From Candidatus Magasanikbacteria bacterium RIFCSPHIGHO2_01_FULL_33_34 (lineage in GTDB: Bacteria > Patescibacteriota > Patescibacteriia > Magasanikbacterales > UBA922): DNA of 64,000 nt. A program made the position numbers and the translations under genes. The stretch covers positions 9,012 to 73,011 of the forward strand of contig MFPS01000008.1 of assembly GCA_001782825.1 (NCBI GenBank). The letters are read 5' to 3'. A model generated the notes under the pieces. The model was not told where the DNA came from and ran no database searches. It saw only the letters and a list, made by a program, of their open reading frames with translations. Below, one piece after another: positions 36,369 through 57,905 of the stretch (positions within the stretch are counted from its first letter, which is position 1; the number at the start of each line of letters is the position of its first letter).

Positions 36369-37829
36369 ATGGAAATTGGTCCTATAAATATTGATTTGTC
36401 ATACGCACAGACTTTTTTTCAAGGAAAAGGGACTTTTGAGGTTGTAATGTTGGTAATTGCATGGTTTGGTTGGATAGTTATTGTATATTTTTTACTTTTT
36501 ATTATGTTATTCCTATGGAAGGAATACAAAGAAGAACAGTACAAGAAGGATTGGAAATGGGTACTTTTGGCGATAGATATTCCACCAGAAAATATGCAAA
36601 CCCCAAAAGCTGTTGAACAAATGTTTTCTCATTTGGCTGGGGCACATGATAGTCCGAATATTGCTGATAAATTTAGAACTGGTTATAAACAGCGTTGGTT
36701 TAGCTTTGAAATTATTAGTATGGAGGGGTATATTCAGTTTTTGGTGCGAACTGAGGAAATGTTTAGAGATTTGGTAGAAGCAGCAGTTTATGCGCAATAC
36801 CCAGGAGCTGAAATTTTTGAGGTTGAAGATTATGTTGATCAAGTACCAGACAAATTTCCTTCAGATGAATATGATATGTGGTCAGCAGATTTTGGTTTAG
36901 CAGAAAATTTTGCTTTTCCGATTAGAACATATGAAGAATTTGAACATAAGCTTTTTAAAGATGAGATGTTGAAGGATCCAATGGGAACATTTTTGGAAAG
37001 TTTTAGTCGGATCGGAGCTGGAGAACAGGTTTGGTTTCAGATTTTATTGGAACCAATAGATAATAGTTGGAAAGAAAAAGTAATAAAAAAGATTAAAGAA
37101 TTGGTAGGTGATATGGCAAGTATGACTAGTAGTAATAGTAAAAAAGGCGGAGGCTTTACTAGTCTTATCACAGATGAACCCAAAAAAGCTATGGCAGAAC
37201 TTAGTGCTCAATTATTTGGTTCTGGTACTTCTGATGCGGATGGTAAGGTTGTAAAAGATACTAACAAAACTCCAAAATTGACTCCGGGACAATCAAAAAT
37301 ATTAGAAGCAATGGAGAAAAAAATAACTAAAATTGGATTTAAAACTAAAATGAGATTAGTATATGTTGCGCGAAAGGAAGTATTTAAACCAGAAAGAGCT
37401 GTTAATGCAATTATTGGGGCTATTGGTCTATATAATGTTCCGAGTTCTAATTCGATTGTGGCGACTTCATCTATTAGTACCAATTATTTTCTCAAAGAAT
37501 CAAGGAACCAAACTAAAAAAATTAAAGCAATGAGTGCATATAAGAAAAGAAAAATGAAAGTTGGTGGCAATTCTTTTGTGTTTAATATAGAGGAGTTGGC
37601 TACTATTTGGCATTTTCCATTATCTTATGTAAAGACTCCAAATGTGCAAAAGACACAAGGTAAAAGAGCTGAACCACCATCTGGCCTTCCGGTTGAAAAT
37701 ATTCCAATTGTTGCCAAGATTCCAGTAGATGAGAGTGATAATAAGACAGTCAAAAAAGGGCAAAATAAAACTATTATTACTGATGCAGGGGATGTGGCTT
37801 ATTTTAGTTCTGATGAAGAGTATGGTTAA
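36369..37829 (+). CDS. hypothetical membrane-anchored protein (N-terminal TM, large soluble domain)
   Basis: 486-aa ORF with AT-rich native codon usage; no recognised motif. Confidence 0.6.
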   Translation: MEIGPINIDLSYAQTFFQGKGTFEVVMLVIAWFGWIVIVYFLLFIMLFLWKEYKEEQYKKDWKWVLLAIDIPPENMQTPKAVEQMFSHLAGAHDSPNIADKFRTGYKQRWFSFEIISMEGYIQFLVRTEEMFRDLVEAAVYAQYPGAEIFEVEDYVDQVPDKFPSDEYDMWSADFGLAENFAFPIRTYEEFEHKLFKDEMLKDPMGTFLESFSRIGAGEQVWFQILLEPIDNSWKEKVIKKIKELVGDMASMTSSNSKKGGGFTSLITDEPKKAMAELSAQLFGSGTSDADGKVVKDTNKTPKLTPGQSKILEAMEKKITKIGFKTKMRLVYVARKEVFKPERAVNAIIGAIGLYNVPSSNSIVATSSISTNYFLKESRNQTKKIKAMSAYKKRKMKVGGNSFVFNIEELATIWHFPLSYVKTPNVQKTQGKRAEPPSGLPVENIPIVAKIPVDESDNKTVKKGQNKTIITDAGDVAYFSSDEEYG

Positions 37830-37835: not shown

Positions 37836-38366
37836 TTAGATATTTATACTTTGTTTTGTACTTTTTTTGTTTTGATAGTATAGGACAGATTCTGTGGTTC
37901 CTACTAATATGAATGTATAGAAAATATCACCCATTAGACTATTTTTGAAGAAGGGAAGGGCCATATAGTAGGATTCAATTAATCCTGAAATTGAATGACT
38001 GTACATTGTACCAAAGATCCATACTGAGGCATTGGTTATAAGGAAGAATATTAGTGATCCCAATATTGTTGCTCCAGCAATTTTACCAAAGCTTTTGTTT
38101 TTTCTTGCAAGCAATCCTAGTAAGCCCATAATTACAAAACTGCCATAAACTGACAACATTATTTGCCAAGAGTAAAAGCCAATAAAAAAGTCGCTTATAA
38201 TAAGGGCGATCACTGGAATTATAATTGCATATTTTTTTGGGAAGTATAGTCCGCTAAAAATTGCAATAGCTCCAATTGGTACAAAATTGGCTGTATGTGG
38301 TAAGAATCTAAAGGTGATTCCAATAGCTAAAAGAAAGTATAAGATTATGTAGTTATTTTTGTTCAT
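37836..38366 (-). CDS. small polytopic membrane protein, ECF-transporter S-component-like (candidate vitamin/cobalamin permease)
   Basis: 176 aa, ~5-6 TM helices; size and topology typical of ECF S components; last gene of the riboswitch-fronted operon. Confidence 0.35.
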   Translation of the reverse strand: MNKNNYIILYFLLAIGITFRFLPHTANFVPIGAIAIFSGLYFPKKYAIIIPVIALIISDFFIGFYSWQIMLSVYGSFVIMGLLGLLARKNKSFGKIAGATILGSLIFFLITNASVWIFGTMYSHSISGLIESYYMALPFFKNSLMGDIFYTFILVGTTESVLYYQNKKSTKQSINI

Positions 38367-38394: not shown

Positions 38395-38575
38395 CTATAA
38401 TAGCATTATTTATATTTTTATCTATGACCGCATTATTTTCAATTATTTGTTTTTACTCCCTGCCTGCCGGCAGGCAGGATTCTCGCTTTGGCTCTGAGGG
38501 TGATGCATGTTGGGGCATCAAATCCGTAAAAACAAATAATTGAAAAAATGCTTAATTATAGATAATGCTCTTAAT
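38395..38575. repeat. structured palindromic intergenic repeat, copy b
   Basis: Outer TIR AGCATTATTTATA / TATAGATAATGCT, inner 17-nt IR CAATTATTTGTTTTTAC / GTAAAAACAAATAATTG (perfect), 20-bp perfect palindrome, GATGCAtgttggGGCATC hairpin. Confidence 0.8.
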
Positions 38576-38584: not shown

Positions 38585-40951
38585 TTATATTATATTTTTA
38601 AGGAATTTTAAACCCATATATAGACCAAGTCCAATGGCTCCAGAACCGGTAACTGCTATGACTTTTTCTATTATATTACGAGAGATTGGATTGGCTTGAT
38701 TTATTATATCATCCTCCAAATATTTTAATTCAGATATTTCAGTGGTTTCTCCTATTGGTTCTATGGTTTCATTTGGTTTATTATTAACCAAGTTTAACAT
38801 AGTATTGGTATCAGTAACAAGTGTAATATTATTTTCTTTTGTTATTTCTTGTGTTGTCGAAGTTATTATCGTTTCTTTGGTTGTATTTTGAACAGTATCA
38901 ATTTTGGTTATTGGTAAATTTTTTTCAATATTTTCTTCAATTAATTCTACAAAAATAGTTGATGTGACAAGCACTTCGGTTGATGTAACAAAAAGAGATT
39001 CAGTTGTGGTGTTAAAGTCTGTACCAATTATATTGCTGTATGAGTTTGAACTACTACTATTGGTTATAGTTGTAGGTATCTGTTCATTTGCTGTAGCAGG
39101 CGTAAATAATGGCTGTATAGGCCAGCTATAACCTAGTAGGGCTGGAATTGCATGTTTTGTATTGAACCAATCAACACCATCTACCCAGTCAGATGTATAA
39201 TAGCCATTTTCTTGTAAATTATCAATATATACAGACCATGGATTTTTGTCACCGATTGTCCATTCTTCTTGACCTTCACCTAGAGAATTTAAGCCCATCA
39301 AAACCCAGCTAGTGGTCAAGGTATCAGAAGTCAGATAACCCCAGCCACCATCATTATTTTGTTCATTTTTTAAATATTGCTTGGCTTTTGTAAATACACT
39401 ATTATCAATTTGAATTCCTTTTTCTTTTGCATAGTTTAATATATTTATAACTGCGCCAGTTATGTCTGCTCCGGCATAACCATCCCATGTGAATGCTCCG
39501 TCTGTATTTTGATCTGCTAAAATATCATTTAGTATATCAGTAATAATGTTTTCATTGATATTATTTTCAGATGTAAGCAATGCAAACAAAGCAAATACAT
39601 CATCATTAATTCCAGGTAATCCAAAGTCAGTTTCAGAATAACATTCGGTTTTTAGCGTATTAATTAGATTTATCATTGATTGATTATTGGTAGAAATTCC
39701 AGACGTATATAATGACAAATAGTGTCTTGGGTATGAAGCACAAACATTTAAATCAGTGGCATCAGTATAATTATAGTTTTTAATGTAGTCAGACAAGGAA
39801 GTAGAACTGGCAATAATATTAGCTGGATTTTTTCCATTGGCTACTAATGCCATTACAGACCAATCAGAAATCCCAGCATCTATGATTTTTCCAGTTTTGT
39901 CTTGGTTTTTTATTAAGAATTCGGTTAATTTATTGGCTGTGTTTGTAATTTGATTAGGTGAAATTAAATTTGTATAAGGTGTATTATTATCTGAAGATCC
40001 ACTACTTGAAGATCCGTTTGATGAATTATTTTCAGTAGTAGTAGAAATGATCGGTAGATCAAGTACATTTATGGTTATAGCGTTACTCCATTTTGAAAAG
40101 TCTGCCGGGGATATTTTTGCATAGTATGTCCCAGTCGCCGAGAACATAAAATCAACTATGCCATTTGTATCAGATACAAGCGTTGTAGTAGTTAAGGTTG
40201 TATCCCACCATCCAGTTGGGTTGGGATTGGTAATTGATATATCTATTGTATCATTGGCATCAGTTGACCATTCACTACTAGTAGTAGAAAAGTTATATTT
40301 GAAAGTTTGGAAGGTTGTAGTGGTACCAATTGGAAAGGTAGAAGTGCTAGCGGTAATTGACCATGGGTTTCCAAAGTATACATAAACATTTTCACCTCCA
40401 AATAATTCATATTTGTCCATACCGATATTTGGATATTCACCGTCTACAGCATATTGCCAATTGTAACAAGCTTCAGTGCTTGAATTAACTTCAATACAAT
40501 TTATCAAAAAACTATTAAAAGATTCATAATATACTAAATTTGAAATATTGAATGAAGCATTGTTTTGATTTTCTGTAAGGAGTGTAGTCAAAACATTATG
40601 GTTTTGTGATGAAGTTGTAAATATTTCATTGGTATTTGAATCTGTATAATCAAATGTTGTACTTGATGATAATTCAACTTCGCCTTGAAATATAAAATTA
40701 TCTTGATATCGCAAATTAAAGTTAATTGAAATTGGTTCATAAATTTCTTCTGTGGTGGTTGGTGTTTCAATAATATCATCTGTAGAGGTTGAAACTTCTT
40801 GTTCGGTTGAGCTAGTAGTTTGTGGGGTACTTGTAGAAGTGTCGCTATCATCAATAGCCCCAAAAGCAGAATTAACTGGTATGGTTATTAGTATTGAGAT
40901 AAACAGTATATTTATAAACAGTATAGGTGTATTAAAGATTTGATTTTTCAT
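38585..40951 (-). CDS. large cell-surface protein with prenyltransferase/terpenoid-cyclase-like alpha/alpha-toroid repeats; signal peptide, Ser/Thr-rich linker, C-terminal TM anchor
   Basis: Repeats such as QNTDGAFTWDGYAGADITGAVINIL, NEQNNDGGWGYLTSDTLTTSWVLMGL, GKIIDAGISDWSVMALVANG resemble squalene-cyclase/prenyltransferase-type repeats; 788 aa. Confidence 0.6.
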   Translation of the reverse strand: MKNQIFNTPILFINILFISILITIPVNSAFGAIDDSDTSTSTPQTTSSTEQEVSTSTDDIIETPTTTEEIYEPISINFNLRYQDNFIFQGEVELSSSTTFDYTDSNTNEIFTTSSQNHNVLTTLLTENQNNASFNISNLVYYESFNSFLINCIEVNSSTEACYNWQYAVDGEYPNIGMDKYELFGGENVYVYFGNPWSITASTSTFPIGTTTTFQTFKYNFSTTSSEWSTDANDTIDISITNPNPTGWWDTTLTTTTLVSDTNGIVDFMFSATGTYYAKISPADFSKWSNAITINVLDLPIISTTTENNSSNGSSSSGSSDNNTPYTNLISPNQITNTANKLTEFLIKNQDKTGKIIDAGISDWSVMALVANGKNPANIIASSTSLSDYIKNYNYTDATDLNVCASYPRHYLSLYTSGISTNNQSMINLINTLKTECYSETDFGLPGINDDVFALFALLTSENNINENIITDILNDILADQNTDGAFTWDGYAGADITGAVINILNYAKEKGIQIDNSVFTKAKQYLKNEQNNDGGWGYLTSDTLTTSWVLMGLNSLGEGQEEWTIGDKNPWSVYIDNLQENGYYTSDWVDGVDWFNTKHAIPALLGYSWPIQPLFTPATANEQIPTTITNSSSSNSYSNIIGTDFNTTTESLFVTSTEVLVTSTIFVELIEENIEKNLPITKIDTVQNTTKETIITSTTQEITKENNITLVTDTNTMLNLVNNKPNETIEPIGETTEISELKYLEDDIINQANPISRNIIEKVIAVTGSGAIGLGLYMGLKFLKNII

Positions 40952-41525
40952 ATTTCCATTCTATTAAATCGTTATTATTAATTATGTAATTAGATATGCC
41001 TATTTTTGCTGATTCTCCATTTATGTAGTATACCCAGTATTTACCAGCTCGATTATCATTTTCAATACCATTTAATTTTGTAATGAAATATCCGATATTA
41101 CTATAGTCTATTGCCTCAAATGTAATTAAGTTATTTTTAGAAAGTTTTTCCATTGCGTGGTATAAGCTAGTATTTTCTTGTGCTGATGATACATAAGTAT
41201 TGTTATCTATATTTAGAGTAAACTTAATTGGATATTCAATGGTTATTTTATCAGTTGTAGTTTCATTGAATGTGGTTTTATCAGTAGTAGTTACTATATT
41301 ATTTATATCTTCTATTATTTCAGAATTTTCAAATTTAATTTTTTCAACTTCATCTTCAATTTTTTCATTATTAATTATGGGGTTATTAGTAGTCGGTTTT
41401 TTATTCTCTATAAATATTTCTTTGTTTGAAGTTAACTGTAAATAGGTAATTCCAAAAATAGTTATGAATATTAAAATTATCATCAGAAATATTAAAGGTT
41501 TGTTTTTTTTGTAAAAATTATTCAT
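40932..41525 (-). CDS. DUF4430-domain protein (transcobalamin/BtuG-like B12-binding beta-domain), membrane-anchored
   Basis: C-terminal NGIENDNRAGKYWVYYINGESAKIGISNYIINNNDLIEWKYE matches DUF4430 signature; ATG at 41525 preferred, because the in-frame TTG at 41573 would place the riboswitch terminator hairpin inside the CDS. Confidence 0.65.
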   Translation of the reverse strand: MNNFYKKNKPLIFLMIILIFITIFGITYLQLTSNKEIFIENKKPTTNNPIINNEKIEDEVEKIKFENSEIIEDINNIVTTTDKTTFNETTTDKITIEYPIKFTLNIDNNTYVSSAQENTSLYHAMEKLSKNNLITFEAIDYSNIGYFITKLNGIENDNRAGKYWVYYINGESAKIGISNYIINNNDLIEWKYEKSNL

Positions 41526-41536: not shown

Positions 41537-41685
41537 ACTTTCCGGCAGGAAAGATAAGTTGATCAAAAATCAAAGGTCCTGCTCGGGTTACGCATTTATT
41601 TGAAGATCGGACTCGTTCCCTAAAGGGACATTACCGTTGCGGCACAGTGAGGGGATTTACCCTACTTCCACAAATAAATGGTTTA
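41537..41685 (-). promoter_or_regulatory. candidate cobalamin (B12) riboswitch with terminator-type expression platform
   Basis: Minus-strand RNA: P1 CAUUUAUUUG...CAAAUAAAUG enclosing GGGUAAAUCCCCUCACUGUGCCGCAACGGUAA (cf. consensus GGUGAAAAUCC...CCGCCACUGUAA) and GAGUCCG (start of B12 box rAGYCMG); followed by CUUUCCUGCCGGAAAG hairpin + UUUUUUAAUUUU directly before the DUF4430 ATG. Confidence 0.5.
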
Positions 41686-41784
41686 GTTGTATTGTCAGAT
41701 TATCATTGAATAGTAGTAGTGTCAAGTATTGATTTTAAGCTAAAATTAGTGTATAGTTTTGCCATATGTGGATAACTGAGTGAG

Positions 41785-41878
41785 ATTAATAGAAATTATT
41801 ATTCGCTCATTCTCGCTTTGGCTCCGAGGTGGTTGCCTGTTGTGGCAACCAAATCCGCTCGTAATAATTTCTATTAAT
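41785..41878. repeat. variant copy (d) of the structured repeat core, with different 19-nt terminal inverted repeats
   Basis: ATTAATAGAAATTATTATTCG...CGTAATAATTTCTATTAAT flank core TTCTCGCTTTGGCTCCGAGGTGGTTGCCtgttgtGGCAACCAAATCCG; hairpin shows compensatory change (GTTGCC/GGCAAC versus GATGCC/GGCATC in copies a-c). Confidence 0.7.
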
Positions 41879-41895
41879 GGTATTTTTGAAAAAGT

Positions 41896-43561: not shown

Positions 43562-45328
43562 TTACTCCCATTCAATAGTCCCTGGAGGTTTATTGGTTAT
43601 ATCAAAAAATACAAAATCAACTTTATCTATTATTTCAATTTCAGCTTGTATTTGTTTTATTACATTTTTTGGCAGTTTTGCAAAGTTTACTGTCATAGCT
43701 TCTTCTGATTCAACTGGTCGTATAACTATACTTTCTTTGTGATTGTATCCAAAAGGGATTAAAACTATTGGCATTTGCCAGATATGTGAACAATTTTTAT
43801 TGTTGTTAACAATTTTATTGATTTTATTATCAAGTTGACGTAACAGGCTGATTCTTTCTTTTGTTAGGTATGACTTTTTAAGTGTAGAATTTTTTATTTG
43901 CTCTTCATTTCCATAAATGGTTATTAAAACTCTATTTATATTTTTATATTTATTAGTTATTTTAGGAGATATTTTATGTAGTTTTTGCCAATTTATTTTT
44001 GTATTAGTTAAAACTAGAGGATGCTTGTAACTTCTTTCATCACCTTGTACGCCAACTGATTTTATAGGTAATTTTGTACCTTCAGATATAGTTATTGGTT
44101 TTTTATTGTTTCCTTCTGAACATAGACAACGAATTGCCAGACCAGGTCCAGGGAAAGGTTGTCTATTTATTAAATTTTTTGGAAGATTTAATTTTAATCC
44201 TATTTTTCTCACTTCGTCTTTGTATAATTCTTTGATTGGTTCAATAATCAAACCCTTTTGAATCATTTTTTGTATTCTATCAACTCGATTATGATGAGTT
44301 TTGATTTTATCAGAATTTTTTGTTCCACCGGATTCAATGGTATCTGGATAAATAGTACCTTGACCTAGTAACCAGTCTTTTTCATTAAAATTTAGTTTTT
44401 TCATTATTTTGTCAGTAATATCCAGAAAAAGATTTCCAATAATTTTTCTTTTTTCTTCTGGTTCATAAACTTTTTTTAAAGATTCAAAATATTCTTTTGA
44501 TGCGTTATATATATGCAAATCATCAAGACCAATATTTGTAAGAGCTTCTTTTACTTGTTCTGATTCGTTCAAGCGCATAAAACCATGATCAATATGAAAA
44601 CCATAAACTTTGTCTTTTCCTAAAGTTTTTTCAAGCAAAGTAAAACATATTGTTGAATCAACGCCACCACTAATTAAAAGAAAAATTTTTTTATTTTTTG
44701 CTTCTTTACGTATATTTTCTTGTATTTGTAGAAGCATATCATTTGTATTCCAGTTTTTTTCTGCATTACAAATATTCAAAACAAAATTTTCTAACATTGT
44801 TTTACCATCTATGCTGTGATTGACTTCTGGATGGAATTGAAAGCTATAGATATTTTTTTCTGATAAAGACATAGCTGTAATTGAATTATTTCCAGTTGTT
44901 CCAATTTGTTTGAAGTTTTTTGGTAATTTTTCAACATTGTCACCGTGGCTCATCCAAACCGTTGTTTGTTTTTTTATATTGTTAAATATTGGTGAGTCTG
45001 ATATTTTTAAAGATGCAATTCCGTATTCTCTTATTTTTCCAGATGAAATTTCACTTCCAAAATGTTGAGCAATTAATTGGTGGCCATAACATAATCCGAG
45101 AATTGGTTTATTTTGTTTAAAAATATTTGTATCGTATTCTAATTTTTCAGAAGAAGTAACACTTTTTGGTCCTCCTGATAAAATAATACCAACTGCATTG
45201 GTGAGTTTCTCAGCTTTTGTATCATTTGGGTATATGTGTGATATAACACCAATTTCTCGGATACGCCTAGCAATCAAATGGGTGTATTGTGATCCAAAAT
45301 CAAGTATAGCTATTTCATTATTTGACAT
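43562..45328 (-). CDS. guaA: GMP synthase (glutamine-hydrolysing), long form
   Basis: GATase CYGHQ/H-P-E triad, ATP-PPase P-loop SGGVDST; 588 aa. Confidence 0.95.
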   Translation of the reverse strand: MSNNEIAILDFGSQYTHLIARRIREIGVISHIYPNDTKAEKLTNAVGIILSGGPKSVTSSEKLEYDTNIFKQNKPILGLCYGHQLIAQHFGSEISSGKIREYGIASLKISDSPIFNNIKKQTTVWMSHGDNVEKLPKNFKQIGTTGNNSITAMSLSEKNIYSFQFHPEVNHSIDGKTMLENFVLNICNAEKNWNTNDMLLQIQENIRKEAKNKKIFLLISGGVDSTICFTLLEKTLGKDKVYGFHIDHGFMRLNESEQVKEALTNIGLDDLHIYNASKEYFESLKKVYEPEEKRKIIGNLFLDITDKIMKKLNFNEKDWLLGQGTIYPDTIESGGTKNSDKIKTHHNRVDRIQKMIQKGLIIEPIKELYKDEVRKIGLKLNLPKNLINRQPFPGPGLAIRCLCSEGNNKKPITISEGTKLPIKSVGVQGDERSYKHPLVLTNTKINWQKLHKISPKITNKYKNINRVLITIYGNEEQIKNSTLKKSYLTKERISLLRQLDNKINKIVNNNKNCSHIWQMPIVLIPFGYNHKESIVIRPVESEEAMTVNFAKLPKNVIKQIQAEIEIIDKVDFVFFDITNKPPGTIEWE

Positions 45329-45369
45329 ATTGTGTAGTTAATAATCGTTCTTGAATATTATCAGAAAGT

Positions 45370-46881
45370 ATGTTAAAGTTCAATTTATTTAGTATATTTA
45401 TTGGTATGTTTAAACAATTTCAAGACACTTTTACATTTGATGATGTGTTGCTGGTACCACAAAAATCAGAGATTTTACCGAAGGATGTAAAAATTCATAC
45501 ATATTTGACTAGAGAGATAAAGCTCAATGCACCATTTTTGAGTGCGCCCATGGATACTGTGACAGAACATGAAATGGCAATTAAAATGGCTTTGGCAGGT
45601 GGTATAGGTATAATTCATAAGAATTTATCAATTGATGATCAGGTAGCAGAAATTAGGAAAGTAAAACGTTTTGAAAATGGATTTGTCAAAAATCCAATGA
45701 CTGCACACCCGAGTGATCCGATGAGTAAAATAATTCAAATAAGAAATAAATTTGGTTATAAAAAAGTACCAATTGTCGACAATGATGGTGTGTTGGTAGG
45801 ATTTATTTCTGATATTGATTATTTGATGTTGCCTGATAATGATGAACATAAAGTATTGGATTTTATGTTTCCAGTCCAAAAAATGAATGTTGGATATGAA
45901 GGAATGAGCTTGAAAGAGGCTTATCAGATGATTCAAAAATTTCGTTTACGTACTTTATGTATTGTTGATAAGAATAATAAATTGGTAAGTATAGTAACTC
46001 GTCGTGATTTGGAAAAAAGTTTATTATATCCAAATTCTTCAAAAGATAGTACTAAACAATTGCTTGTTGGTGGAGCAATAGGCGTGGGTATAAATGGTAT
46101 TGAACGGGCAGAAAATTTACTGAAAGCCGGAACTGATGTTTTAATTGTAGATACTGCGCATGGTCATTCTAGAGGTGTTATAGATACAGTGAAAGAAATT
46201 AAGAGAAAATGGTCAGGTGTACAAGTTATTGCTGGGAATATTGCATCTTCTGATGCTGCAAAAGATTTGATTGATGCTGGTGTAGATGCCTTGAAAGTTG
46301 GTATTGGGCCTGGTTCAATTTGCACAACTCGTATAGTTGCAGGCATAGGTGTACCACAATTATCTGCTATTATGGAGGTGGTCAAGGGTGTATATAATTC
46401 ACAAAGAAAAGTTCCAGTCATTGCTGATGGTGGAATCAAGTCATCTGGTGATGTTGTAAAAGCTCTGGCAGTTGGTGCTATGTCTGTGATGATGGGTAAT
46501 ATGTTTGCTGGCACAGATGAATCTCCTGGAAGAATAGAATATACCAATGGTAGAATGTATAAAGTTTATCGTGGAATGGGTAGTATTGATGCAATGGAAT
46601 TTGGTAGTAAAGATAGATATGGGCAGGCAGAAATTAAAGAAAAACAAAAATTTGTTCCAGAGGGTGTGAGTGGACGGGTGGCATACAAAGGATCAGTTTC
46701 TACTATTTTATATCAATTGGAAGGTGGTTTACGAAGTGGTTTTGGTTATAATGGAGCTCGTAATATTTCAGAATTACAAAAACGAGCTCATTTTGTAAAG
46801 ATAACGGGGTCAAGTTTGAAAGAAAGTCACCCTCATGATTTAAAAGAAGTTAGTAGTGCTCCAAATTATAGTATTGATTAA
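45370..46881 (+). CDS. guaB: IMP dehydrogenase with CBS pair
   Basis: FTFDDVLLVP, catalytic loop GIGPGSICTTR, CBS domains; 503 aa. Confidence 0.95.
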   Translation: MLKFNLFSIFIGMFKQFQDTFTFDDVLLVPQKSEILPKDVKIHTYLTREIKLNAPFLSAPMDTVTEHEMAIKMALAGGIGIIHKNLSIDDQVAEIRKVKRFENGFVKNPMTAHPSDPMSKIIQIRNKFGYKKVPIVDNDGVLVGFISDIDYLMLPDNDEHKVLDFMFPVQKMNVGYEGMSLKEAYQMIQKFRLRTLCIVDKNNKLVSIVTRRDLEKSLLYPNSSKDSTKQLLVGGAIGVGINGIERAENLLKAGTDVLIVDTAHGHSRGVIDTVKEIKRKWSGVQVIAGNIASSDAAKDLIDAGVDALKVGIGPGSICTTRIVAGIGVPQLSAIMEVVKGVYNSQRKVPVIADGGIKSSGDVVKALAVGAMSVMMGNMFAGTDESPGRIEYTNGRMYKVYRGMGSIDAMEFGSKDRYGQAEIKEKQKFVPEGVSGRVAYKGSVSTILYQLEGGLRSGFGYNGARNISELQKRAHFVKITGSSLKESHPHDLKEVSSAPNYSID

Positions 46882-46910
46882 TAAAATTATATTTTAAGTA
46901 TAAGGTAATT

Positions 46911-48446
46911 TTAATGTTTGAAACATCTATTTCCAGTAAATACCATACTTATTTTGTATTCGTTACAAGCTTTGATTACTTCTTCATCTTTTATTGAGCC
47001 ACCAGGTTGGATTATGGCTTTGATTCCTGTTTGAGCAATTTTATCTATACTATCTCTAAAAGGAAAAAACGCATCAGAACATAATACAGAATCTTTTATT
47101 TTTTCACCACTTTTTTTAATAGCCAAATCAACTGCATCAATCCTTGAGACTTGTCCTGGACCAATACCAATGGTGGTATTATTTTTTGCTATTAAGATTG
47201 CATTTGATTTCACATGTTTGAGTACTTTCCAACCAAATAACATATCAATTAGTTCTTGTTCTGTTGGTTGTTTGTCAGTCACAAATTGCAGATCTTCTTT
47301 TTTGATTATTTTTGTATCAATATCTTGTACAAGTAGTCCACCTTCAATATAACGAAATTCTAATTTATCTTGATTTGGTAATATATTGCCTAATTCAAGA
47401 ACACGCATATTTTGTTTTTTGTCTAACACCCCTAAAGCTTCTTTGTCATAATTTGGCGCCAAAACTATTTCTACAAATACTTTTGTTATTTCTTCAGCAA
47501 TAGCTTTGGTGCAGGTTCTGTTAAGTGCAATAATTCCACCAAATGCAGACATTGGATCAGTATTGTAGGCCTGTTTGAATACTGTAGCTATGTTATCTCC
47601 AATAGCGACTCCACATGGGTTAGCATGTTTTACTATTACACAGGCTGGTTCTGTAAATTCTTTTAGGGTTGATAATGCTCCATCAGCATCATTTATATTA
47701 TTGTAGGATAATTTTTTACCTTGTAAAATTTTTGCATTCAATATATTACAACCTTTGTTATTTGGTTTTTTATAAACTGATGCCATTTGATGTGGATTTT
47801 CTCCGTAACGTAATTCATAATCTTTTTTGAAAGTTAAAGAAAAATTATAAGAAAATTTTTCTTCTTTTAGATGATTGTGGATTATGGTGTCATATTGTGC
47901 TGTATGACCAAAAGATTTTATAGCCATTTTTTTTCTGGTTTCAAAATTTATTCCGCCAGATTTTAATTCTTCGAGTAGGGGATTGTAGTCTTGTGGATCT
48001 ACAATTACTGTAACCCAACCCATATTTTTGGCAGCACTACGTATCATGGTTGGACCACCAATATCAATATTTTCAATTATTTCATCATAGTTTACGTTTT
48101 CTTTTAGAATAGTTTCAGAAAATGGATAAAGATTGCATACGACCAAATCTATCCATTTTATTTCATTTTGTTCAGCAATTACTTTGTGGGAGTCTCTAAG
48201 CCCTAAAATACCACCATGAACTTTTGGGTGTAGAGTTTTAACACGACCTTCCATCATTTCTGGAAATCCAGTAAATTCAGAAATATCTTTTACATTTATA
48301 TTTGCTTCAGTTAGTTTTTTGGCTGTTCCGCCAGTAGAAATTATTTCTATCCCTAATCTTTGTAATTCTTTAGCAAATTCTAAAATTCCATCTTTGTTAG
48401 AGACTGAGATCAAAGCTCTGTGGATTTGAGTACTATTTTTGTTCAT
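46911..48446 (-). CDS. purH: bifunctional AICAR transformylase / IMP cyclohydrolase
   Basis: MGS-like N-terminus RALISVSNKDGILEFAKELQRLGIEIISTGGTAK and AICARFT domain; 511 aa. Confidence 0.95.
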   Translation of the reverse strand: MNKNSTQIHRALISVSNKDGILEFAKELQRLGIEIISTGGTAKKLTEANINVKDISEFTGFPEMMEGRVKTLHPKVHGGILGLRDSHKVIAEQNEIKWIDLVVCNLYPFSETILKENVNYDEIIENIDIGGPTMIRSAAKNMGWVTVIVDPQDYNPLLEELKSGGINFETRKKMAIKSFGHTAQYDTIIHNHLKEEKFSYNFSLTFKKDYELRYGENPHQMASVYKKPNNKGCNILNAKILQGKKLSYNNINDADGALSTLKEFTEPACVIVKHANPCGVAIGDNIATVFKQAYNTDPMSAFGGIIALNRTCTKAIAEEITKVFVEIVLAPNYDKEALGVLDKKQNMRVLELGNILPNQDKLEFRYIEGGLLVQDIDTKIIKKEDLQFVTDKQPTEQELIDMLFGWKVLKHVKSNAILIAKNNTTIGIGPGQVSRIDAVDLAIKKSGEKIKDSVLCSDAFFPFRDSIDKIAQTGIKAIIQPGGSIKDEEVIKACNEYKISMVFTGNRCFKH

Positions 48447-49017
48447 AAGATTTTTTTTTAATTACTTCAATGAAGGCTTCACCTTCAAGTTTTTGGACTT
48501 TTGATTTTAAGGTTTCTGGCGTATCTTTTGAAGTTACAGGACAACTTTTTTGGATTATAATAGGTCCAGTATCTATTCCTTCATCTATAATATGGATTGT
48601 ACAACCAGTTTCTTTGACGCCAGCTTTTAGTACTTCTTCATGTACATTTAAATCCATCTTACCAGCAAATGCTGGTAAAAGAGATGGGTGTACATTTAAA
48701 ATTTTATTTCTCCATTTATTGATAAAGTTTATAGAAATGATACGCATATATCCTATCAGTAGTACTAAATCAATATTTTTTTTATCTAATATTTTCATTA
48801 TTTCTGCATCAAACTCTTTTTTGGTTTTATTTTTTGGGTTTATATATATGTTTTCTATATTAGCATTTTTTGCTCTTTCTAATATATATGCATCAGATTT
48901 ATCACTAATAACAATATCAAGTGAAGCATTTAAATCATCATTTTTTATAGCTTCTATAATTGGTTGCATACTAGTGCCTCGTGTTGATCCTAAAATTGCT
49001 ATTTTTAACTTATGCAT
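48433..49017 (-). CDS. purN: phosphoribosylglycinamide formyltransferase
   Basis: 194 aa; formyl-transferase core (NVHPSLLPAFAG), overlaps purH start. Confidence 0.9.
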   Translation of the reverse strand: MHKLKIAILGSTRGTSMQPIIEAIKNDDLNASLDIVISDKSDAYILERAKNANIENIYINPKNKTKKEFDAEIMKILDKKNIDLVLLIGYMRIISINFINKWRNKILNVHPSLLPAFAGKMDLNVHEEVLKAGVKETGCTIHIIDEGIDTGPIIIQKSCPVTSKDTPETLKSKVQKLEGEAFIEVIKKKSYEQK

Positions 49018-49074
49018 AAATGAATGATTTTATATTTATATAAGTATATAAGTAATGTGAATTAATTTGTAAGT

Positions 49075-49262
49075 TATAATAGCATTATTTATACTTTCAA
49101 TCACGACCATATTATTTTCAATTATTTATTTTTACTCCCTGCCTGCCGGCAGGCAGGATTCTCGCTATGGCTCCGAGGGTGATGCATGTTGGGGCATCAA
49201 ATCCGTAAAAATAAATAATTGAAAATAATGCTTAATTATAAATAACGCTTTCAATTTTTACA
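49075..49262. repeat. structured palindromic intergenic repeat, copy c
   Basis: Outer TIR AGCATTATTTATA / TATAAATAACGCT, inner IR CAATTATTTATTTTTAC / GTAAAAATAAATAATTG (perfect, compensatory A/T versus G/C in copy b), 20-bp perfect palindrome; left flank on minus strand reads TTGAAA-16nt-TATAAC toward purN. Confidence 0.8.
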
Positions 49263-49287
49263 ATTAATTTATAGTATTCACATATGC

Positions 49288-50598
49288 TTATTTTCGTAAG
49301 TCAGCCATCATTTTAATTCTTTTTTCTATTAATTCTTCTGTACCTATATCTTCTCTATGAAATAGTGGACCTTTTATTTTTTTTATTTCTGATTCTGCAA
49401 TTAATTCGGCATCAGAAATTGAATCAGACACACTTACAATGGCAATAGTACGAGAACCAGTTTCATACAATTCATTTTCTTTCATATCAACAGATGCATA
49501 GTGAATTAATTCTTTATTTTCTACAGCAGATACATCAATTATTTTATTTTTTATAGGATTATCTGGGTATCCAATTGGCACAGCATATTTACAGACACTG
49601 GCTTTTTTTGCAAATCTAGCATGATCTTGAGTCAGATTACCTTTAATTATTGCTAAACATAGTTCAACAAAGTCTGATTCTAAAAGAGATAAGATATTCA
49701 TACATTCTGGGTCGCCAAAGCGTGCATTGTATTCTATTAGGTTTACCCCGTTTTTTGTGGCCATAAAACCACCATAGATTATTCCTTTATATTCTTCATT
49801 AAATTCATCTTTTATTGCCTTTATAGTTGCTTGATTAATTTTATGCGCTTGCTCAATATCTGTATTTGTTAAAAAAGGAAGTTTGTGGTCAGAGTCAGAA
49901 TAACTGCCCATACCACCGGTGTTTGGTCCTGTATCGTTTACAAAGGCTCGTTTGTGATCTTGTATGGCTATCATGTGAGCAAGATTATTTCCATCAGAAA
50001 AACTAAGGAGAGAAAATTCTTGACCAATCAACTTTTCTTCTATCAAAAAAGTTCCGTCTTGTGCAATTAACTCTTCACAAAAAGCAATTCCGTCTGCAAT
50101 AGATTGAAGATGGTCTCCAGAAACTTTAACACCTTTTCCTCCCATTAATCCGTCTGCTTTTACTACATAATTACCGCCAAGGGAATCAATAAATTCCTTC
50201 ACTCCATTTATATCAGAAAAATATTTATATTTAGGTCCACCTGGTATATTGTATTTTCTTAAAAGATTGCGGGTGAAGGATTTGCTAGTTTCGAGTTGGG
50301 CAAGTTTTTTGGTTGGTCCAATGCTTGGAATATTTTGTTCTTTTAGTTTGTCTACTACACCTGCTTCCAAAGGTGCTTCAGGACCAATAATAGCAAAGTC
50401 AATATTATTATCTTTGGCAAAATCTGCAATCGTTTTAGTATCAGTAATTTTACCAATCTTATAATTAGAGGATAATTCCTTTATTCCAGGATTATTATTT
50501 GAGGCAAAACAAAAAATATTTGTAGGTTTTTTTGATCGTTTTATGGCTTTGGCAATTGCATGTTCTCTGGCTCCTGAACCGACTAATAATATGTTCAT
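49288..50598 (-). CDS. purD: phosphoribosylamine--glycine ligase
   Basis: ATP-grasp GAR synthetase; MNILLVGSGAREHA N-terminus; 436 aa. Confidence 0.95.
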   Translation of the reverse strand: MNILLVGSGAREHAIAKAIKRSKKPTNIFCFASNNNPGIKELSSNYKIGKITDTKTIADFAKDNNIDFAIIGPEAPLEAGVVDKLKEQNIPSIGPTKKLAQLETSKSFTRNLLRKYNIPGGPKYKYFSDINGVKEFIDSLGGNYVVKADGLMGGKGVKVSGDHLQSIADGIAFCEELIAQDGTFLIEEKLIGQEFSLLSFSDGNNLAHMIAIQDHKRAFVNDTGPNTGGMGSYSDSDHKLPFLTNTDIEQAHKINQATIKAIKDEFNEEYKGIIYGGFMATKNGVNLIEYNARFGDPECMNILSLLESDFVELCLAIIKGNLTQDHARFAKKASVCKYAVPIGYPDNPIKNKIIDVSAVENKELIHYASVDMKENELYETGSRTIAIVSVSDSISDAELIAESEIKKIKGPLFHREDIGTEELIEKRIKMMADLRK

Positions 50599-50708
50599 AT
50601 TTTTTAAAGTTAGGTGTATGGTATAACTTTGTTTATACGTTTAACTATGATTATATTAGTTTTAATTATAAGTAACCTTTTCTTTTTATAAGTTAGGTTT
50701 TAAATTAT

Positions 50709-52172
50709 CTATACTCTGTTAGCTCCGCGCATATCTTCTAATTCTTGTAACTTTTTTTCGTCTATATCATTAGTGATATAGATGCCATCAAGACAAGGCA
50801 TAGAAGGTCTATCAATATTGTGTTCACCGTATCGTGTAATTGCTTCAACTAAATCTTCAATGTCTTGGTATAATAAAATATCACAACCTATATATTCACG
50901 GATTTCTTCTATGCTTTTATTATGTGCGATTAATTCGGATCTAGTTGGTATATCTATTCCATAAAAATCTGGATATTTTACAGGAGGGCAGGCAGAAATA
51001 AGATATACTTCTTTTGCACCAGCATCTTTTACTAGTTTTACCACTTCTCTACTGGTTGTACCTCTCACGATTGAGTCATCTAGTAGCATTACTTTTTTAT
51101 CTTTTATTTCAGTTTCTTGTGGAGATAATTTTTGTAATACTGATTGTCGTCTTTTTTCTTGGCCGGGCATTATAAAAGTTCTACCTACAAATTGATTTTT
51201 GTATATACCCTCAGTATACCTAACCCCTAGTACACTGGCAGCGGATAATGCGGCTGTATTTGAGGTAAATGGTACAGGGATGAGTACATCTGGTTTTATA
51301 TTTGGATATTCTCTTAGCCATTTTTTGGCCAGATTTTGTCCCATGCGTAGTCTGGCTCTATATACACTGACATTGTTTATAATAGAGTCAGGTCTAGATA
51401 AATAAACGTATTCAAAAACGCAAGGAGTGAATTTTTCTCTTCGGAGTATTCGGCTACGCATTTCACCGTCATTATTAATAAAAATCACTTCGCCTGGCTG
51501 AACATTACCCATGTATTTAAAACCAAGAGGATAATACATTGTATTTTCTGAAGAAAAAATATAATCTTTTGTTTCGTCTGGGTTTATTCTCATTCCACAA
51601 ACAAATGGGCGAATTCCGTGTGGATCGCGAAAAGCAATCATACCTTTACCAGCAATTATACCAATTACTGAATATCCACCTTTTGCTCTATCAAATACTG
51701 ATTCAACTGCTTGGCAAATATTTTCAAATATATCATTAGTTGGATCTAATTTGTCTAATTTTGAAGCAAAAACATTCATTATTGTTTCTAGATCAGATTC
51801 TGAATTACAGTGGTATCTATCCTCTTTTTCTAATTCATCTTTTAATTCAGTATAGTTAGTTAGATTTCCATTATGAACCATAGCTATTCCATACGGTGAA
51901 TTTGTCATAAATGGTTGAGCATTTTCTACACTATGACTTGATCCATTGGTAGGGTAGCGTGTATGTCCAATACCCCAATTACCAGTTAGTCTGCTTATAT
52001 TTTGTTGGTCAAATATATCACGAACAAAACCAGATCCTTTTTTCAAATGAAATCTTTTGTTGTATGTTAAAATACCAGCCGCATCTTGTCCACGGTGTTG
52101 TAGATGTATTAAGCCATCATAAATTTCAGTTGCAACTGGTTTGTGAGAGAAAATGCCGATTATTCCACACAT
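50709..52172 (-). CDS. purF: amidophosphoribosyltransferase
   Basis: N-terminal nucleophile MCGIIGI, PRTase domain; 487 aa. Confidence 0.95.
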   Translation of the reverse strand: MCGIIGIFSHKPVATEIYDGLIHLQHRGQDAAGILTYNKRFHLKKGSGFVRDIFDQQNISRLTGNWGIGHTRYPTNGSSHSVENAQPFMTNSPYGIAMVHNGNLTNYTELKDELEKEDRYHCNSESDLETIMNVFASKLDKLDPTNDIFENICQAVESVFDRAKGGYSVIGIIAGKGMIAFRDPHGIRPFVCGMRINPDETKDYIFSSENTMYYPLGFKYMGNVQPGEVIFINNDGEMRSRILRREKFTPCVFEYVYLSRPDSIINNVSVYRARLRMGQNLAKKWLREYPNIKPDVLIPVPFTSNTAALSAASVLGVRYTEGIYKNQFVGRTFIMPGQEKRRQSVLQKLSPQETEIKDKKVMLLDDSIVRGTTSREVVKLVKDAGAKEVYLISACPPVKYPDFYGIDIPTRSELIAHNKSIEEIREYIGCDILLYQDIEDLVEAITRYGEHNIDRPSMPCLDGIYITNDIDEKKLQELEDMRGANRV

Positions 52173-52200
52173 AAATAAAAATAATTAGGATAAAAATTTA

Positions 52201-53559
52201 TTATATCAAATCTACTACATCAGTGGAAAGACCAATATAGGTATGAGGTGTTAGTTTAAGTAATTTATTTTTTTCTTCTTCTGGTATTTCCAGTGAATTT
52301 ATAAAATTATAAATTGTTTGTTTGTTGACTTTTTCTCCGCGAGTTAGCTCTTTTAATTTTTCGTATGGTTTTTCATACCCGACTTTACGCATAACTGTTT
52401 GGATTGCTTCTGCTAATACTTCCCAATGATTGTTTAGTTCTTCATCTAATTTTTCTTTATTTATAGTTAAACGTGACATACCTTTTAAAATATTTTTACA
52501 AGCAAGCAGTGAGTGGGCGAGTGGTATGCCTTGATTTCTAAGTACGGTGCTGTCAGTTAAATCGCGTTGCATACGAGAAATTGGAAGTTTTTGGGATAGG
52601 TGTACAAAGTAAGCATTTGCTATGCCTAGATTTCCTTCTGCATTTTCAAATTGTATAGGATTAATTTTGTGAGGCATAGCGCTTGATCCTATTTCATTGT
52701 CCTTCTTCTTTTGTCCAAAAATTCCACGAGATATATACATCCATATATCTCGTGTAAAATCTATTAATATTGTGTTTATCCTTTCAATTATTTGATAACT
52801 TTCTGTGATTGAATCATGTGATTCAATTTGAATTGTTATTATGTTTGGTTCAAGATTAAGAGAGGAAATAAAATTTTTACTAAAATTTATCCAATCTATA
52901 TTTGGATAAGCAATATTGTGCGCGCCCCATGTGCCAGTTGCGCCACCAAATTTTCCTTGTAATTTATGATTAGATAATTGTAGTATCTGTCTTTGGAGTC
53001 TATGGGCAAAAACTGCAAATTCTTTACCTACTGTAGTAGGGGTTGCGCTTTGTCCATGGGTTAAAGAAAGCATTGGTTGGTGTTTGTTTTTTTTGGCAAA
53101 AATTATAAATTTTTCTTGAACTTCTGATATTTTTGGTAAGTAAATATTTTTTATAGCAGAATTCCACATCAATGTGTATGCTAAATTGTTTATATCTTCA
53201 GAAGTTAAAGCAAAATGAATAAATTCTATGTATTTGTTGAATTTAGTATTTTGTAATTTTTCTTTCAAAAAATATTCAATGGCTTTTACATCATGATTAG
53301 TTGTTTCTTCAATTTTTTTTATTGATTGTGCATCTTCGTTTGAAAAGTTTTTATAATATGATTTGAGTTTATTTTGTTGCTCCAAAGTCAAAGGTTCAAT
53401 TTCATTAATATTTTTTTCTATAGAGAGAGCAATTAAATATTCTATTTCTACCATTAAACGATAGCGCATTAGCGCCATTTCTGAAAAATATTCTGATAGT
53501 TCTTCAACAGATGTTTTGTATCGACCATCAATTGGAGAAATGTTTGTGAGTAGATTCAT
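52201..53559 (-). CDS. purB: adenylosuccinate lyase
   Basis: Fumarase/lyase family signature (GSSAMPHKINP); 452 aa. Confidence 0.9.
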   Translation of the reverse strand: MNLLTNISPIDGRYKTSVEELSEYFSEMALMRYRLMVEIEYLIALSIEKNINEIEPLTLEQQNKLKSYYKNFSNEDAQSIKKIEETTNHDVKAIEYFLKEKLQNTKFNKYIEFIHFALTSEDINNLAYTLMWNSAIKNIYLPKISEVQEKFIIFAKKNKHQPMLSLTHGQSATPTTVGKEFAVFAHRLQRQILQLSNHKLQGKFGGATGTWGAHNIAYPNIDWINFSKNFISSLNLEPNIITIQIESHDSITESYQIIERINTILIDFTRDIWMYISRGIFGQKKKDNEIGSSAMPHKINPIQFENAEGNLGIANAYFVHLSQKLPISRMQRDLTDSTVLRNQGIPLAHSLLACKNILKGMSRLTINKEKLDEELNNHWEVLAEAIQTVMRKVGYEKPYEKLKELTRGEKVNKQTIYNFINSLEIPEEEKNKLLKLTPHTYIGLSTDVVDLI

Positions 53560-53566
53560 AGATAAT

Positions 53567-56233: not shown

Positions 56234-56246
56234 AAGCTAATTGCAT

Positions 56247-57287
56247 TTATATTAATTTTACATTTTTATTTCCTTCTACAACTTTGCCAATTTCATAAAG
56301 TTTGAATTTTGGGTATTTAGTAATTTGTTCAAAAGTTTTTACAATATTTTCTGGAGAAATAACTAAAATCATTCCGATTCCCATATTAAATGTACGGTAC
56401 ATTTCTTTTTCTTCAATATTGCCGATTTGTTGCATAACTTCAAATACAGGTAAATGTGGCCAGCTTTTTTTGTTTATTTCTACAGCACAGTTATTTGGGA
56501 GTATGCGTGGAATATTTTCTATAAATCCACCACCTGTTATATGAGCTATACCTTTTATTTCAATTTCATTATCTAATATTCTTAAAATAGGATTTGTATA
56601 GTTTGTGTGTGGTTCTAGTAAAGTCTCACCAACAGATTTTTCAAATTCTGCAATTTTAGTTTCTACTCCATATTTTTCAATTTCGAAAAATAATTTTCTA
56701 GCCAAAGAATATCCATTTGTGTGTAATCCATTTGAAGCAAAACCTAATATAATATCACCTGATTTTATATTTTTTCCGGTAATTACTTTGTCTTTTTCAA
56801 CTACACCAGTTATGCATCCAACAATATCGTGTTCACCAGTTTTGTATACTCCGGGCATTTCTGCAGTTTCACCACCAACCAAGGAAATATTGTTTTCTAT
56901 GCATTCATGAACCATACTTTTGACAATTGTTTCAACTTGGTTTGGATCCAGTCTTTCACTGGCAATATAATCAAGAAAAGTTAAAGGTTTTGCACCCATA
57001 GCGACTATATCTCCAGCACAGTTACTAACAATATCAATACCAACTGTATCATATTTGTCCATCATTCTAGCTATAATCAGTTTTGTGCCAACGCCATCAA
57101 CGCTTTGGACCATTAGTGGATGTTTATACTCAGCAAAAGCTTCTTTTATATCGTATACAGCCCCAAAACTACCTAATCCTGTAAGGACATGTTTTGAAAA
57201 AGTTGTTTTTACTTTTTCTTTTATTCGTCTAACTGTTTCTTCGCCAGCATCTATATTAACGCCAGCTTGTTTGTAGGTAATTGTCAT
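56247..57287 (-). CDS. purM: phosphoribosylformylglycinamidine cyclo-ligase (AIR synthetase)
   Basis: ITYKQAGVNIDAGEE start typical of PurM; ORF track extends to upstream ATG at 57353, giving a 22-aa leader not seen in PurM. Confidence 0.9.
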   Translation of the reverse strand: MTITYKQAGVNIDAGEETVRRIKEKVKTTFSKHVLTGLGSFGAVYDIKEAFAEYKHPLMVQSVDGVGTKLIIARMMDKYDTVGIDIVSNCAGDIVAMGAKPLTFLDYIASERLDPNQVETIVKSMVHECIENNISLVGGETAEMPGVYKTGEHDIVGCITGVVEKDKVITGKNIKSGDIILGFASNGLHTNGYSLARKLFFEIEKYGVETKIAEFEKSVGETLLEPHTNYTNPILRILDNEIEIKGIAHITGGGFIENIPRILPNNCAVEINKKSWPHLPVFEVMQQIGNIEEKEMYRTFNMGIGMILVISPENIVKTFEQITKYPKFKLYEIGKVVEGNKNVKLI

Positions 57288-57337
57288 ATTATTTGACTTT
57301 TGTATTTTACTATGTTTAAATTTGATGAGAAAGGGGA

Positions 57338-57805: not shown

Positions 57806-57832
57806 TTATCTTCTCGTCCGGTTATAGGAGGT

Positions 57833-57888
57833 GTCCACGGCGAGAATTATATATATAATTAATTTATATATATAATTCTGTCGTGGAC
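57833..57888. repeat. ~56-bp AT-rich imperfect palindrome
   Basis: GTCCACGGCGAGAATTATATATATAATT / AATTTATATATATAATTCTGTCGTGGAC. Confidence 0.6.
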
Positions 57889-57905
57889 TATTTTAAGGAG
57901 CGCTT

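Follow-up and report, generated by a model that had tools for sequence, protein, structure and literature searches.

The class Cbl-IIb of cobalamin riboswitches has been defined by Chan & Mondragon 2020 (PMC7367189). In the metE riboswitch of Priestia megaterium, mutagenesis demonstrated that a kissing loop stabilizes P13, so that the antiterminator is blocked and the terminator forms (Kennedy et al. 2023, PMC10327014); the consensus of L5 is UCCCG (PMC10327014). Kissing loops of cobalamin riboswitches always hold at least one unpaired nucleotide, and L13 must sit on a stem-loop (PMC5028336). Here we consider a leader RNA of this kind in a 64,000-nt stretch of Candidatus Magasanikbacteria bacterium RIFCSPHIGHO2_01_FULL_33_34 (contig MFPS01000008.1, positions 9,012 to 73,011), further called the window; coordinates are those of the window, and the RNA as well as the operon behind it are on the minus strand. 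An initial annotation, made from the sequence alone, had proposed a cobalamin riboswitch with a terminator in the 5′ leader of a DUF4430 gene. Our analysis supports this interpretation, with 41593-41680 as a class-II-type aptamer; we consider it quite probable that the DUF4430 operon has for its leader a cobalamin riboswitch of class-II type, most likely acting as a transcriptional OFF switch under kissing-loop/antiterminator control.

The aptamer and its conservation

When both strands of the entire window were compared with 4227 Rfam families, a single match had an E-value ≤1, the one to RF01482 (adenosylcobalamin, AdoCbl; 43.6 bits, E = 1.1e-4). When a 451-nt slice was searched with Infernal in E-value mode, the same match (41680-41593) had E = 7.7e-7. 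Among the models of the clan RF01482 was the best, ahead of RF00174 and RF01689. The alignment covers model positions 17-104, is untruncated and has no gaps in the core; it spans the outer helix, J3/4, P4/L4, P5/L5, P6 and J6/3.

The aptamer is 88 nt long, a four-way junction (P3-P6) closed by a continuous 10-bp P1/P3 helix in which CAUUUAUUUG (41680-41671) pairs with CAAAUAAAUG (41602-41593). Within this helix J3/4 (UGGAA) is followed by P4/L4 (41665-41649) and P5/L5 (41646-41638), with L5 reading UGCCG at 41644-41640; the base of P6 (41636-41634 with 41610-41608) and the hairpin GUCCCUUUAGGGAAC (41629-41615) come next, the start of the B12 box is GAGUCCG (41614-41608), and J6/3 (AUCUU, 41607-41603) leads back to the outer helix. 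The core reads UGGAAGU, GGGUAAAUCCCC and CACUGUGCCGCAACGGUAA, and all core nucleotides of the junction are present: GGAA of J3/4, GGU..AA..CC of L4, the CACUG-type J4/5-P5 and AGUCNG of the B12 box. As expected for class II (Cbl-IIb-like), the RNA is devoid of a P2 module and carries only a short hairpin on P6, which consists of an internal loop and a hairpin of 4-7 bp; neither of the class I (Cbl-I) features, L2A-P2-L2B and the large P6 extension (P7-P11), was seen in the window RNA. The G+C content is 0.44 over 41550-41699 versus 0.19-0.30 in the flanks.

Most of these parts had been recognized in the initial annotation: the 10-bp helix, the core motifs, the P6 hairpin followed by GAGUCCG and the elevated G+C content are all found where it had placed them, and its guess of a minimal or variant class agrees with the class-II architecture. 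The helix it had named P1 does exist; it is actually a continuous P1/P3 stack. The Infernal comparison with cobalamin families, which it had proposed as a check, came out significant by E-value for RF01482, though short of the gathering score of this family.

Conservation was studied in 80 genomic loci collected with a profile of DUF4430 homologs, all from metagenome-assembled genomes (MAGs) of Patescibacteria. In most of them an nhmmer search with the aptamer of the window as query gave a match immediately 5′ of the DUF4430 gene. A covariance model (R1), built on 20 sequences with the Rfam-derived structure, matched 75 of the 80 loci, always on the coding strand, with scores of 28-120 bits; its only match in the window had 107.5 bits. 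In an alignment of 76 sequences standard pairs occupied 94.3% of the cells; shuffling lowered this to 67.6%, and sliding the partners to 34-48%. Compensatory changes on both sides were present in 24 of the 28 pairs, and all five helices covaried (covariation score 0.613 versus 0.158, a value reached by none of 500 shuffles). For instance, pairs of P5 were exchanged between UA and AU (63/13) and between GC and CG (71/4), and a pair at the base of P6 among GC, CG and UA (73/2/1). The junction nucleotides GGAA, GGU..AA..CC, CACUG and AAGUCCG were invariant or nearly so. With conservation in 75 of 80 loci, covariation in every helix and a terminator in 68 of 71 relatives, the fold is confirmed as cobalamin-type. 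Some orthologous leaders score above the RF01482 gathering score (L007, 64.7 bits; L053, 52.1 bits), others stay below it (L061, 49.0; L013, 44.7). The window element thus belongs to an already known kind of riboswitch, at the edge of RF01482.

The pairs of P5 and P6 were taken from the Rfam-derived structure, which does exhibit compensatory changes; pairs GGA/UCU and ACUGU/ACGGU that appeared in the RNAalifold consensus were set aside since their columns are invariant and hence uninformative.

A subgroup of five loci, mainly from Wildermuthbacteria, matches RF01689 rather than RF01482, and one of its members, L054, passes the threshold of RF01689 (AdoCbl-II; 41.5 versus 36.5). These loci (L038, L042, L047, L054 and L057) combine a canonical L5 (CCC) with G-rich partners downstream. 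In a further eight loci (L063, L071, L041, L030, L039, L016, L070 and L074) the aptamer matches are 145-200 nt long, exceeding the model by 30-90 nt, with insertions in L4 or in the P6 hairpin.

Upstream of the aptamer a promoter may be located at 41699-41725, where inspection revealed a −35 box TTGACA (41725-41720) and a −10 box GATAAT (41704-41699); the latter can alternatively be read as an extended −10 element, TGaTAATCT. The promoter scan did not list this site because its spacer is 15 nt. Boxes of the type TTGACA / ~17 nt / TAnnnT are present at an equal distance 5′ of the riboswitch in most related loci, where a conserved ACAAUUUAAC stands 3′ of them and abuts P1; its counterpart in the window is the 5′ leader ACAACUAAAC (41681-41690), directly before P1. 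From the positions of the boxes and of this leader, the transcript probably starts ~10-15 nt 5′ of P1, with 41681-41690 as the likely start region.

The P13 hairpin and the expression platform

Two features that were absent from the initial annotation could couple the ligand to the terminator: a hairpin P13/L13 able to form a kissing loop (41577-41588) and an antiterminator. In the aligned loci a near-invariant motif, (C)CCGAGCAGG(A), is located 3′ of P1; next come a small hairpin, the sequence of which varies, and a hairpin with a U-run. In the window this motif, separated from P1 by a 5-nt linker J1/13 (41592-41588), folds into a mini-hairpin with pairs C41587-G41578 and C41586-G41579 and the loop CGAGCA (41585-41580). 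The hexaloop is CGAGCA in 70 of 71 sequences and CGCGCA in the remaining one. Its flanks pair and covary (UCC/GGA, GUUC/GAAC, UCUU/AAGA, AACC/GGUU, GCC/GGC), giving a P13 stem of 2-5 bp in relatives and 2 bp in the window. Among 85 distinct 16-mers the two inner pairs were CG 70, UA 8, AU 7 and CG 73, GC 6, UA 4, GU 1, UG 1, respectively, with not a single unpaired cell; the covariation score of P13 was 0.456 versus 0.153, and did not exceed 0.21 when the partners were slid.

The hexaloop 5′-CG(A)GCA-3′ is complementary to L5, 5′-UGCCG-3′, if the A is bulged, and the bulge is the sole position of the loop that varies (A, C or U). A loop CG[A/C]GCA occurs 5-45 nt 3′ of P1 in all 71 loci whose L5 is UGCCG and in none of the five loci with canonical L5, CCC(C), which have G-runs instead; by Fisher's exact test the probability of this association is 1 in 18,474,840, uncorrected for phylogeny. 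We infer that L5 and L13 form kissing-loop pairs. In comparison with the canonical UCCCG, this family would then bear a compensated exchange of a C-G pair for a G-C pair in the kissing loop (UCCCG to UGCCG, with L13 matched) along with a one-nucleotide bulge. As a minority of leaders have the canonical L5, the DUF4430 gene family would be under kissing loops of two types.

Other partners of the conserved motif were considered as well. Pairing of CCCGAGCAGGA with the P6 hairpin, suggested by RNAduplex, was rejected (the sequence of the P6 hairpin varies), as was its pairing with CUGU..CG of P5: column 92 changes from U to A in 13 sequences with the motif staying fixed, and this change covaries inside P5. 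A pairing of AGGA with UCUU of J6/3, noticed by eye, was dropped, being merely 4 bp long and inside the ligand pocket.

Downstream of P13 there is a spacer hairpin, UUGAU-UUUUG-AUCAA (41559-41573), seen in folding; in many relatives this position is taken by a small hairpin that varies in sequence and has a U-rich loop. Next comes the intrinsic terminator CUUUCC-UGCC-GGAAAG (41553-41538) with U6 at 41537-41532, found both by a terminator scan and by folding. Folding also yields an antiterminator of 9 bp with one bulge, in which 41586-41577 (CCG-A-GCAGGA) pairs with 41550-41542 (UCCUGCCGG). It overlaps the 5′ strand of the terminator, its loop and the first bases of its 3′ strand, and excludes both P13 and the terminator. 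The leader has its minimum free energy when folded with the antiterminator: the platform has −14.9 kcal/mol with it and −8.2 kcal/mol with the L13 motif blocked, and in the latter fold the terminator forms.

A hairpin with a U-run of at least 5 is located 3′ of the motif in 68 of 71 relatives. In 58 of these 68, at least 5 nucleotides of the motif are paired into the terminator hairpin when folding is unconstrained, and the loci differ in the part of the motif that is used (CCCGAG:CUCGGG, GAGCAG:CUGCUC, GCAGGA:UCCUGC). Such variety would be expected if the L5 partner fixes the sequence of the motif and the terminator evolves to match it. The leader thus has what is predicted for an intrinsic-terminator (transcriptional OFF) platform, a hairpin with a U-run that is mutually exclusive with an antiterminator using P13. 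The terminator hairpin and U-run before the ATG (41525) and the DUF4430 gene behind them had already been pointed out in the initial annotation, and both stand, the hairpin being listed by an independent terminator scan; the mutually exclusive terminator and antiterminator, for which it had suggested a folding check, were indeed obtained.

The following mechanism can be proposed. With B12 bound, L5 (UGCCG) would kiss L13 (CG-A-GCA, with the A bulged) against the ligand; the kissing loop would hold P13, whose nucleotides could not reach the terminator region; the terminator would form, and transcription would end 7 nt before the ATG. Without B12, P13 would melt and CCGAGCAGGA would pair with UCCUGCCGG into the more stable antiterminator, so that the operon would be transcribed. 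An OFF switch makes sense in that the regulated genes are likely uptake genes.

One could argue that this cobalamin riboswitch controls mainly translation, with the hairpin and the kissing loop masking ribosome access. The only purine-rich stretch near the ATG that resembles a Shine-Dalgarno (SD) sequence, GGAAAG (41543-41538), is the 3′ strand of the hairpin and is sequestered in it; moreover, GGGGGAG-type sequences near the start codon and a short leader in L054, L042 and L038, of the canonical-L5 subgroup, fit translational control, and many characterized class-II switches, e.g. env8, are translational (PMC5028336). However, at 13-18 nt from the ATG GGAAAG is far for an SD sequence, and L13 (CGAGCA), ~55 nt from the ATG, is not a ribosome-binding site (RBS), whereas the U-run of at least 5 that follows the hairpin in nearly all of the loci is a signature of intrinsic termination. 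Mainly translational control therefore looks unlikely to us, although masking of translation may be a second effect, and control of termination through the kissing loop and antiterminator is the reading that we carry further.

The regulated operon

The first gene of the operon (40932-41525) codes for a DUF4430 protein of 197 aa (Pfam PF14478, 62.3 bits) with an N-terminal membrane or signal segment; it is 100% identical to a MAG protein of Candidatus Magasanikbacteria, a member of the ultrasmall Patescibacteria, or the Candidate Phyla Radiation (CPR). DUF4430 is a domain present in the C-terminal region of transcobalamins (TCN) (PMC4350170). The second gene (38585-40951) encodes a predicted surface protein of 788 aa with an N-terminal signal, a C-terminal anchor, a further DUF4430 match (24.5 bits) and a region resembling the alpha/alpha toroid of squalene cyclases (SQHop_cyclase_C, 23.5 bits, below the cut-off of 26.1); against the PDB chains its sequence gave only squalene-cyclase noise. 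The third gene (37836-38366) codes for a membrane protein of 176 aa with DUF6580 (Pfam PF20221, 158 bits). Of the loci with the riboswitch, 68 encode a homolog of the 788-aa protein and 42 one of the DUF6580 protein, downstream and on the same strand, and the order DUF4430, DUF4430/toroid surface protein, DUF6580 is conserved in relatives. NCBIfam added nothing for the three proteins, and a literature search gave no paper on DUF6580.

An AlphaFold model of the DUF6580 protein, made from 41 homologs, had a mean confidence (pLDDT) of 89.8. Its best PDB folds were BtuM with cyanocobalamin or hydroxycobalamin, 8c7p and 8ovv (TM score 0.69, probability 1.0), followed by S components of energy-coupling factor (ECF) transporters. 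This model makes DUF6580 a candidate for a cobalamin transporter, its fold being of the BtuM-like / ECF S-component type, and the operon most likely serves to scavenge and import corrinoids. The RNA is thus placed in the 5′ leader of B12-related genes, as is typical for the clan: DUF4430 at the start of the operon and the BtuM-like DUF6580 at its end.

Several observations weigh against the reading of this leader as a B12-controlled switch of uptake genes. The window score of 43.6 bits does not reach the gathering score of 50 of RF01482, a model of clan CL00101, and at Rfam gathering thresholds the whole window had no match at all; routine annotation therefore misses the riboswitch. P13 of the window has only two Watson-Crick pairs, with A41588 and A41577 mismatched, and its terminator hairpin measures only 6 bp (−5.4 kcal/mol). 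As L5 and L13 are invariant in the main family, the kissing-loop pairs come without covariation within it; what speaks for them is complementarity and one class-level switch, seen in 5 sequences that may represent one or two evolutionary events. The fold match of DUF6580 to BtuM has a weak E-value, about 0.05, and the DUF6580 sequence had no match among PDB chains. Finally, no B12-dependent enzyme was found among the 10 large open reading frames (ORFs) of the window that were checked.

Some of these points, namely the score below the gathering threshold and the lack of a B12-dependent enzyme among the ORFs checked, would suit a leader derived from a cobalamin riboswitch that has lost B12 sensing and now responds to another ligand, binds a protein or acts as a constitutive attenuator; so would the deviation of L5 and L13 from the canonical consensus UCCCG. 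We consider this very improbable: the core junction nucleotides are all invariant across the 76 sequences, the change in L5 is matched by a complementary L13, the genes behind the leader are B12-related, and close relatives pass RF01482. Chance resemblance without conserved function, for which one could cite the same sub-threshold score and an AU-rich P1 that could easily arise in AT-rich intergenic DNA of 25-30% G+C, hardly deserves credence and can be taken as already refuted, given that the match is the only Rfam match in the window (E = 1.1e-4), that the leader fold has a z-score of −2.06, and above all that 75 of the 80 orthologous loci have kept the element and that 24 of its 28 pairs show compensatory changes.

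A literature search found no report of natural cobalamin riboswitches in Patescibacteria/CPR; the leader may expose an annotation gap, a functional-looking riboswitch missed by threshold-based Rfam annotation in these bacteria. The regulatory context argues that DUF4430 proteins and the uncharacterized DUF6580 act in capture and import of corrinoids; with such a role, these bacteria with reduced genomes would depend on B12 made by others. The compact module of an unusually small P13 with L13, together with the compensated, lineage-typical L5, would be a natural variant of the kissing-loop ‘code’ and could serve riboswitch engineering; for gene expression in Patescibacteria, the use of native riboswitch parts as tools has been suggested (PMC11665869). 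Since the mechanism as such has been described before, the finding adds to the existing understanding and does not change it; its main added value is in the functional inference for DUF4430 and DUF6580 and in the wide spread of the UGCCG/CGNGCA module described below.

In the window we also saw a repeated, strongly structured intergenic element in four copies, 41780-41885, 25593-25684, 49137-49226 and 38458-38547 (plus-strand coordinates). All four share the core ATTCTCGCTTTGGCTCCGAGGGTGATGCCTGTTGTGGCATCAAATCCG, and three share the palindrome CCTGCCTGCCGGCAGGCAGG. The first copy, with a 17-bp AU stem (z-scores −4.4 / −6.3), has the putative riboswitch promoter on one side and the divergent dus gene on the other; the one at 38458-38547 is inside the operon, in the gap from the 788-aa gene to the DUF6580 gene. 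The element had no Rfam match, and no copy was found in the 160 loci examined. Directly downstream of the operon, on the opposite strand, there is an ORF of 486 aa (36369-37829, plus strand) with no Pfam family; an ORF of 690 aa (25707-27779, minus strand) likewise has none.

Elsewhere in the window, in the leucyl-tRNA synthetase of 1000 aa (8604-11606, plus strand), the editing domain and the anticodon-binding domain are set apart by an insertion, residues ~465-622, which is an alpha/beta-hydrolase / serine-hydrolase domain. A dense cluster of purine biosynthesis genes, unusual for a reduced CPR genome, occupies 43562-60448; it includes GuaA, IMPDH, PurH, PurF-like and PurL proteins as well as a protein of 888 aa in which a PurQ-like amidotransferase is fused with SAICAR synthetase and AIR carboxylase. 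A contig of related Magasanikbacteria, L061, contains a sub-threshold match to the type III hammerhead ribozyme (8592-8655, minus strand; 35.7 bits versus a gathering score of 48.5, E = 5e-4).

The UGCCG/CGNGCA module elsewhere and comparison with known systems

The exact L5/P6 core, CTGTGCCGCAACGGTAA, occurs in at least 120 stretches of metagenomic DNA with G+C content from 0.31 to 0.67. The model matched 73 of the 80 metagenome loci examined, and nearly all of these matches carried the same hexaloop on divergent stems (UUUGA/UCAAA, UUCGA/UCGAG, ACUCU/AGAGC, GCCCC/GGGGC). On metagenome contigs the same RNA, L5 UGCCG with a CGAGCA hairpin, precedes ORFs of 400-670 aa: L081:2666-4177, L097:957-2402, L091:1880-3286 (minus), L107:3915-5477 (minus), L096:12082-13524, L098:1073-2635, L153:6058-7779, L117:1501-2835 and others. 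These ORFs fall into a few clusters of distant relationship, with 25-39% identity. Pfam gave no match for 19 of the 20 tested; of eight searched in NCBIfam, six had no match and two had only far-sub-threshold ones; one ORF tested against the PDB had no significant match. In four loci the ORF is followed by a gene for a cytidylyltransferase-like (NadD-type) protein of ~195 aa.

One could speculate that the window RNA is part of a distinct, undescribed class-II subclass, widespread in uncultivated bacteria, that marks unknown B12 biology and is defined by a kissing loop of altered code, in which L5 UGCCG would pair with a CGNGCA hexaloop, itself invariant and set on a minimal P13 of 3 bp; a literature search found no paper on UGCCG. 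We regard this as a tentative possibility, and a somewhat doubtful one. If true, the subclass would mark in Patescibacteria a corrinoid-scavenging cassette (DUF4430, the surface DUF4430/toroid protein and the BtuM-like DUF6580), and elsewhere a Pfam-less family of ~500 aa and, behind it, a NadD-like nucleotidyltransferase; a corrinoid selectivity of its own is conceivable as well.

Turning to the described systems, the proposed transporter is closest in fold to BtuM, a solitary ECF-S-type cobalamin transporter (8c7p, 8ovv). The DUF6580 model shares with it the six-helix S-component fold, and both btuM genes and the DUF6580 gene are found under a B12 riboswitch; on the other hand, the identity between the two is 13-14%, with no sequence-level match of DUF6580 to any PDB chain.

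The env8 riboswitch for hydroxocobalamin (Cbl-IIa, RF01689; Johnson 2012 / Polaski 2016, PMC5028336) likewise has a class-II aptamer of small size, and its J1/13 linker is short, with 7 nt versus 5-10 nt in most of our loci; as far as the predicted kissing loop of the window RNA goes, a further shared feature would be an L13 that is placed on a stem-loop and whose pairing is broken by unpaired purine(s). However, control by env8 is translational: its L13 contains the RBS, and there are two bulged purines and an A-G pair, whereas the window RNA has a terminator at its end and would have one bulged A. The env8 family RF01689 is matched only by the five-locus subgroup of the Wildermuthbacteria type.

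The similarity to RF01482 (Cbl-IIb) extends over the four-way junction, J3/4 UGGAAGU, the T-loop GGU..AAUCC of L4, CAC and the 3-bp P5, as well as P6 with its internal loop and short hairpin, AAGUCNGGUCUU of the B12 box and J6/3, and the continuous outer helix, with neither a P2 module nor a large P6 extension. Besides its lower score, the window RNA differs in the kissing partners: L5 is UGCCG in the window and CcC in the model, and the P13 of the model is a hairpin of ~12 bp, whereas that of the family has 2-5 bp and a fixed hexaloop. In this family Infernal places the model P13 on the antiterminator or on the terminator.

In its logic the window RNA resembles the metE riboswitch of P. megaterium, where, too, in the absence of ligand the nucleotides of P13 pair with the terminator's 5′ side; for the window this pairing is computed. 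The metE riboswitch has the canonical L5 UCCCG, five contiguous pairs in the kissing loop and a larger P13 with an internal loop, in contrast to the L5 UGCCG, the one presumably bulged nucleotide of L13 and the minimal P13 of the window. Furthermore, it is the entire P13/L13 motif that joins the predicted antiterminator here, and not its 3′ side alone.

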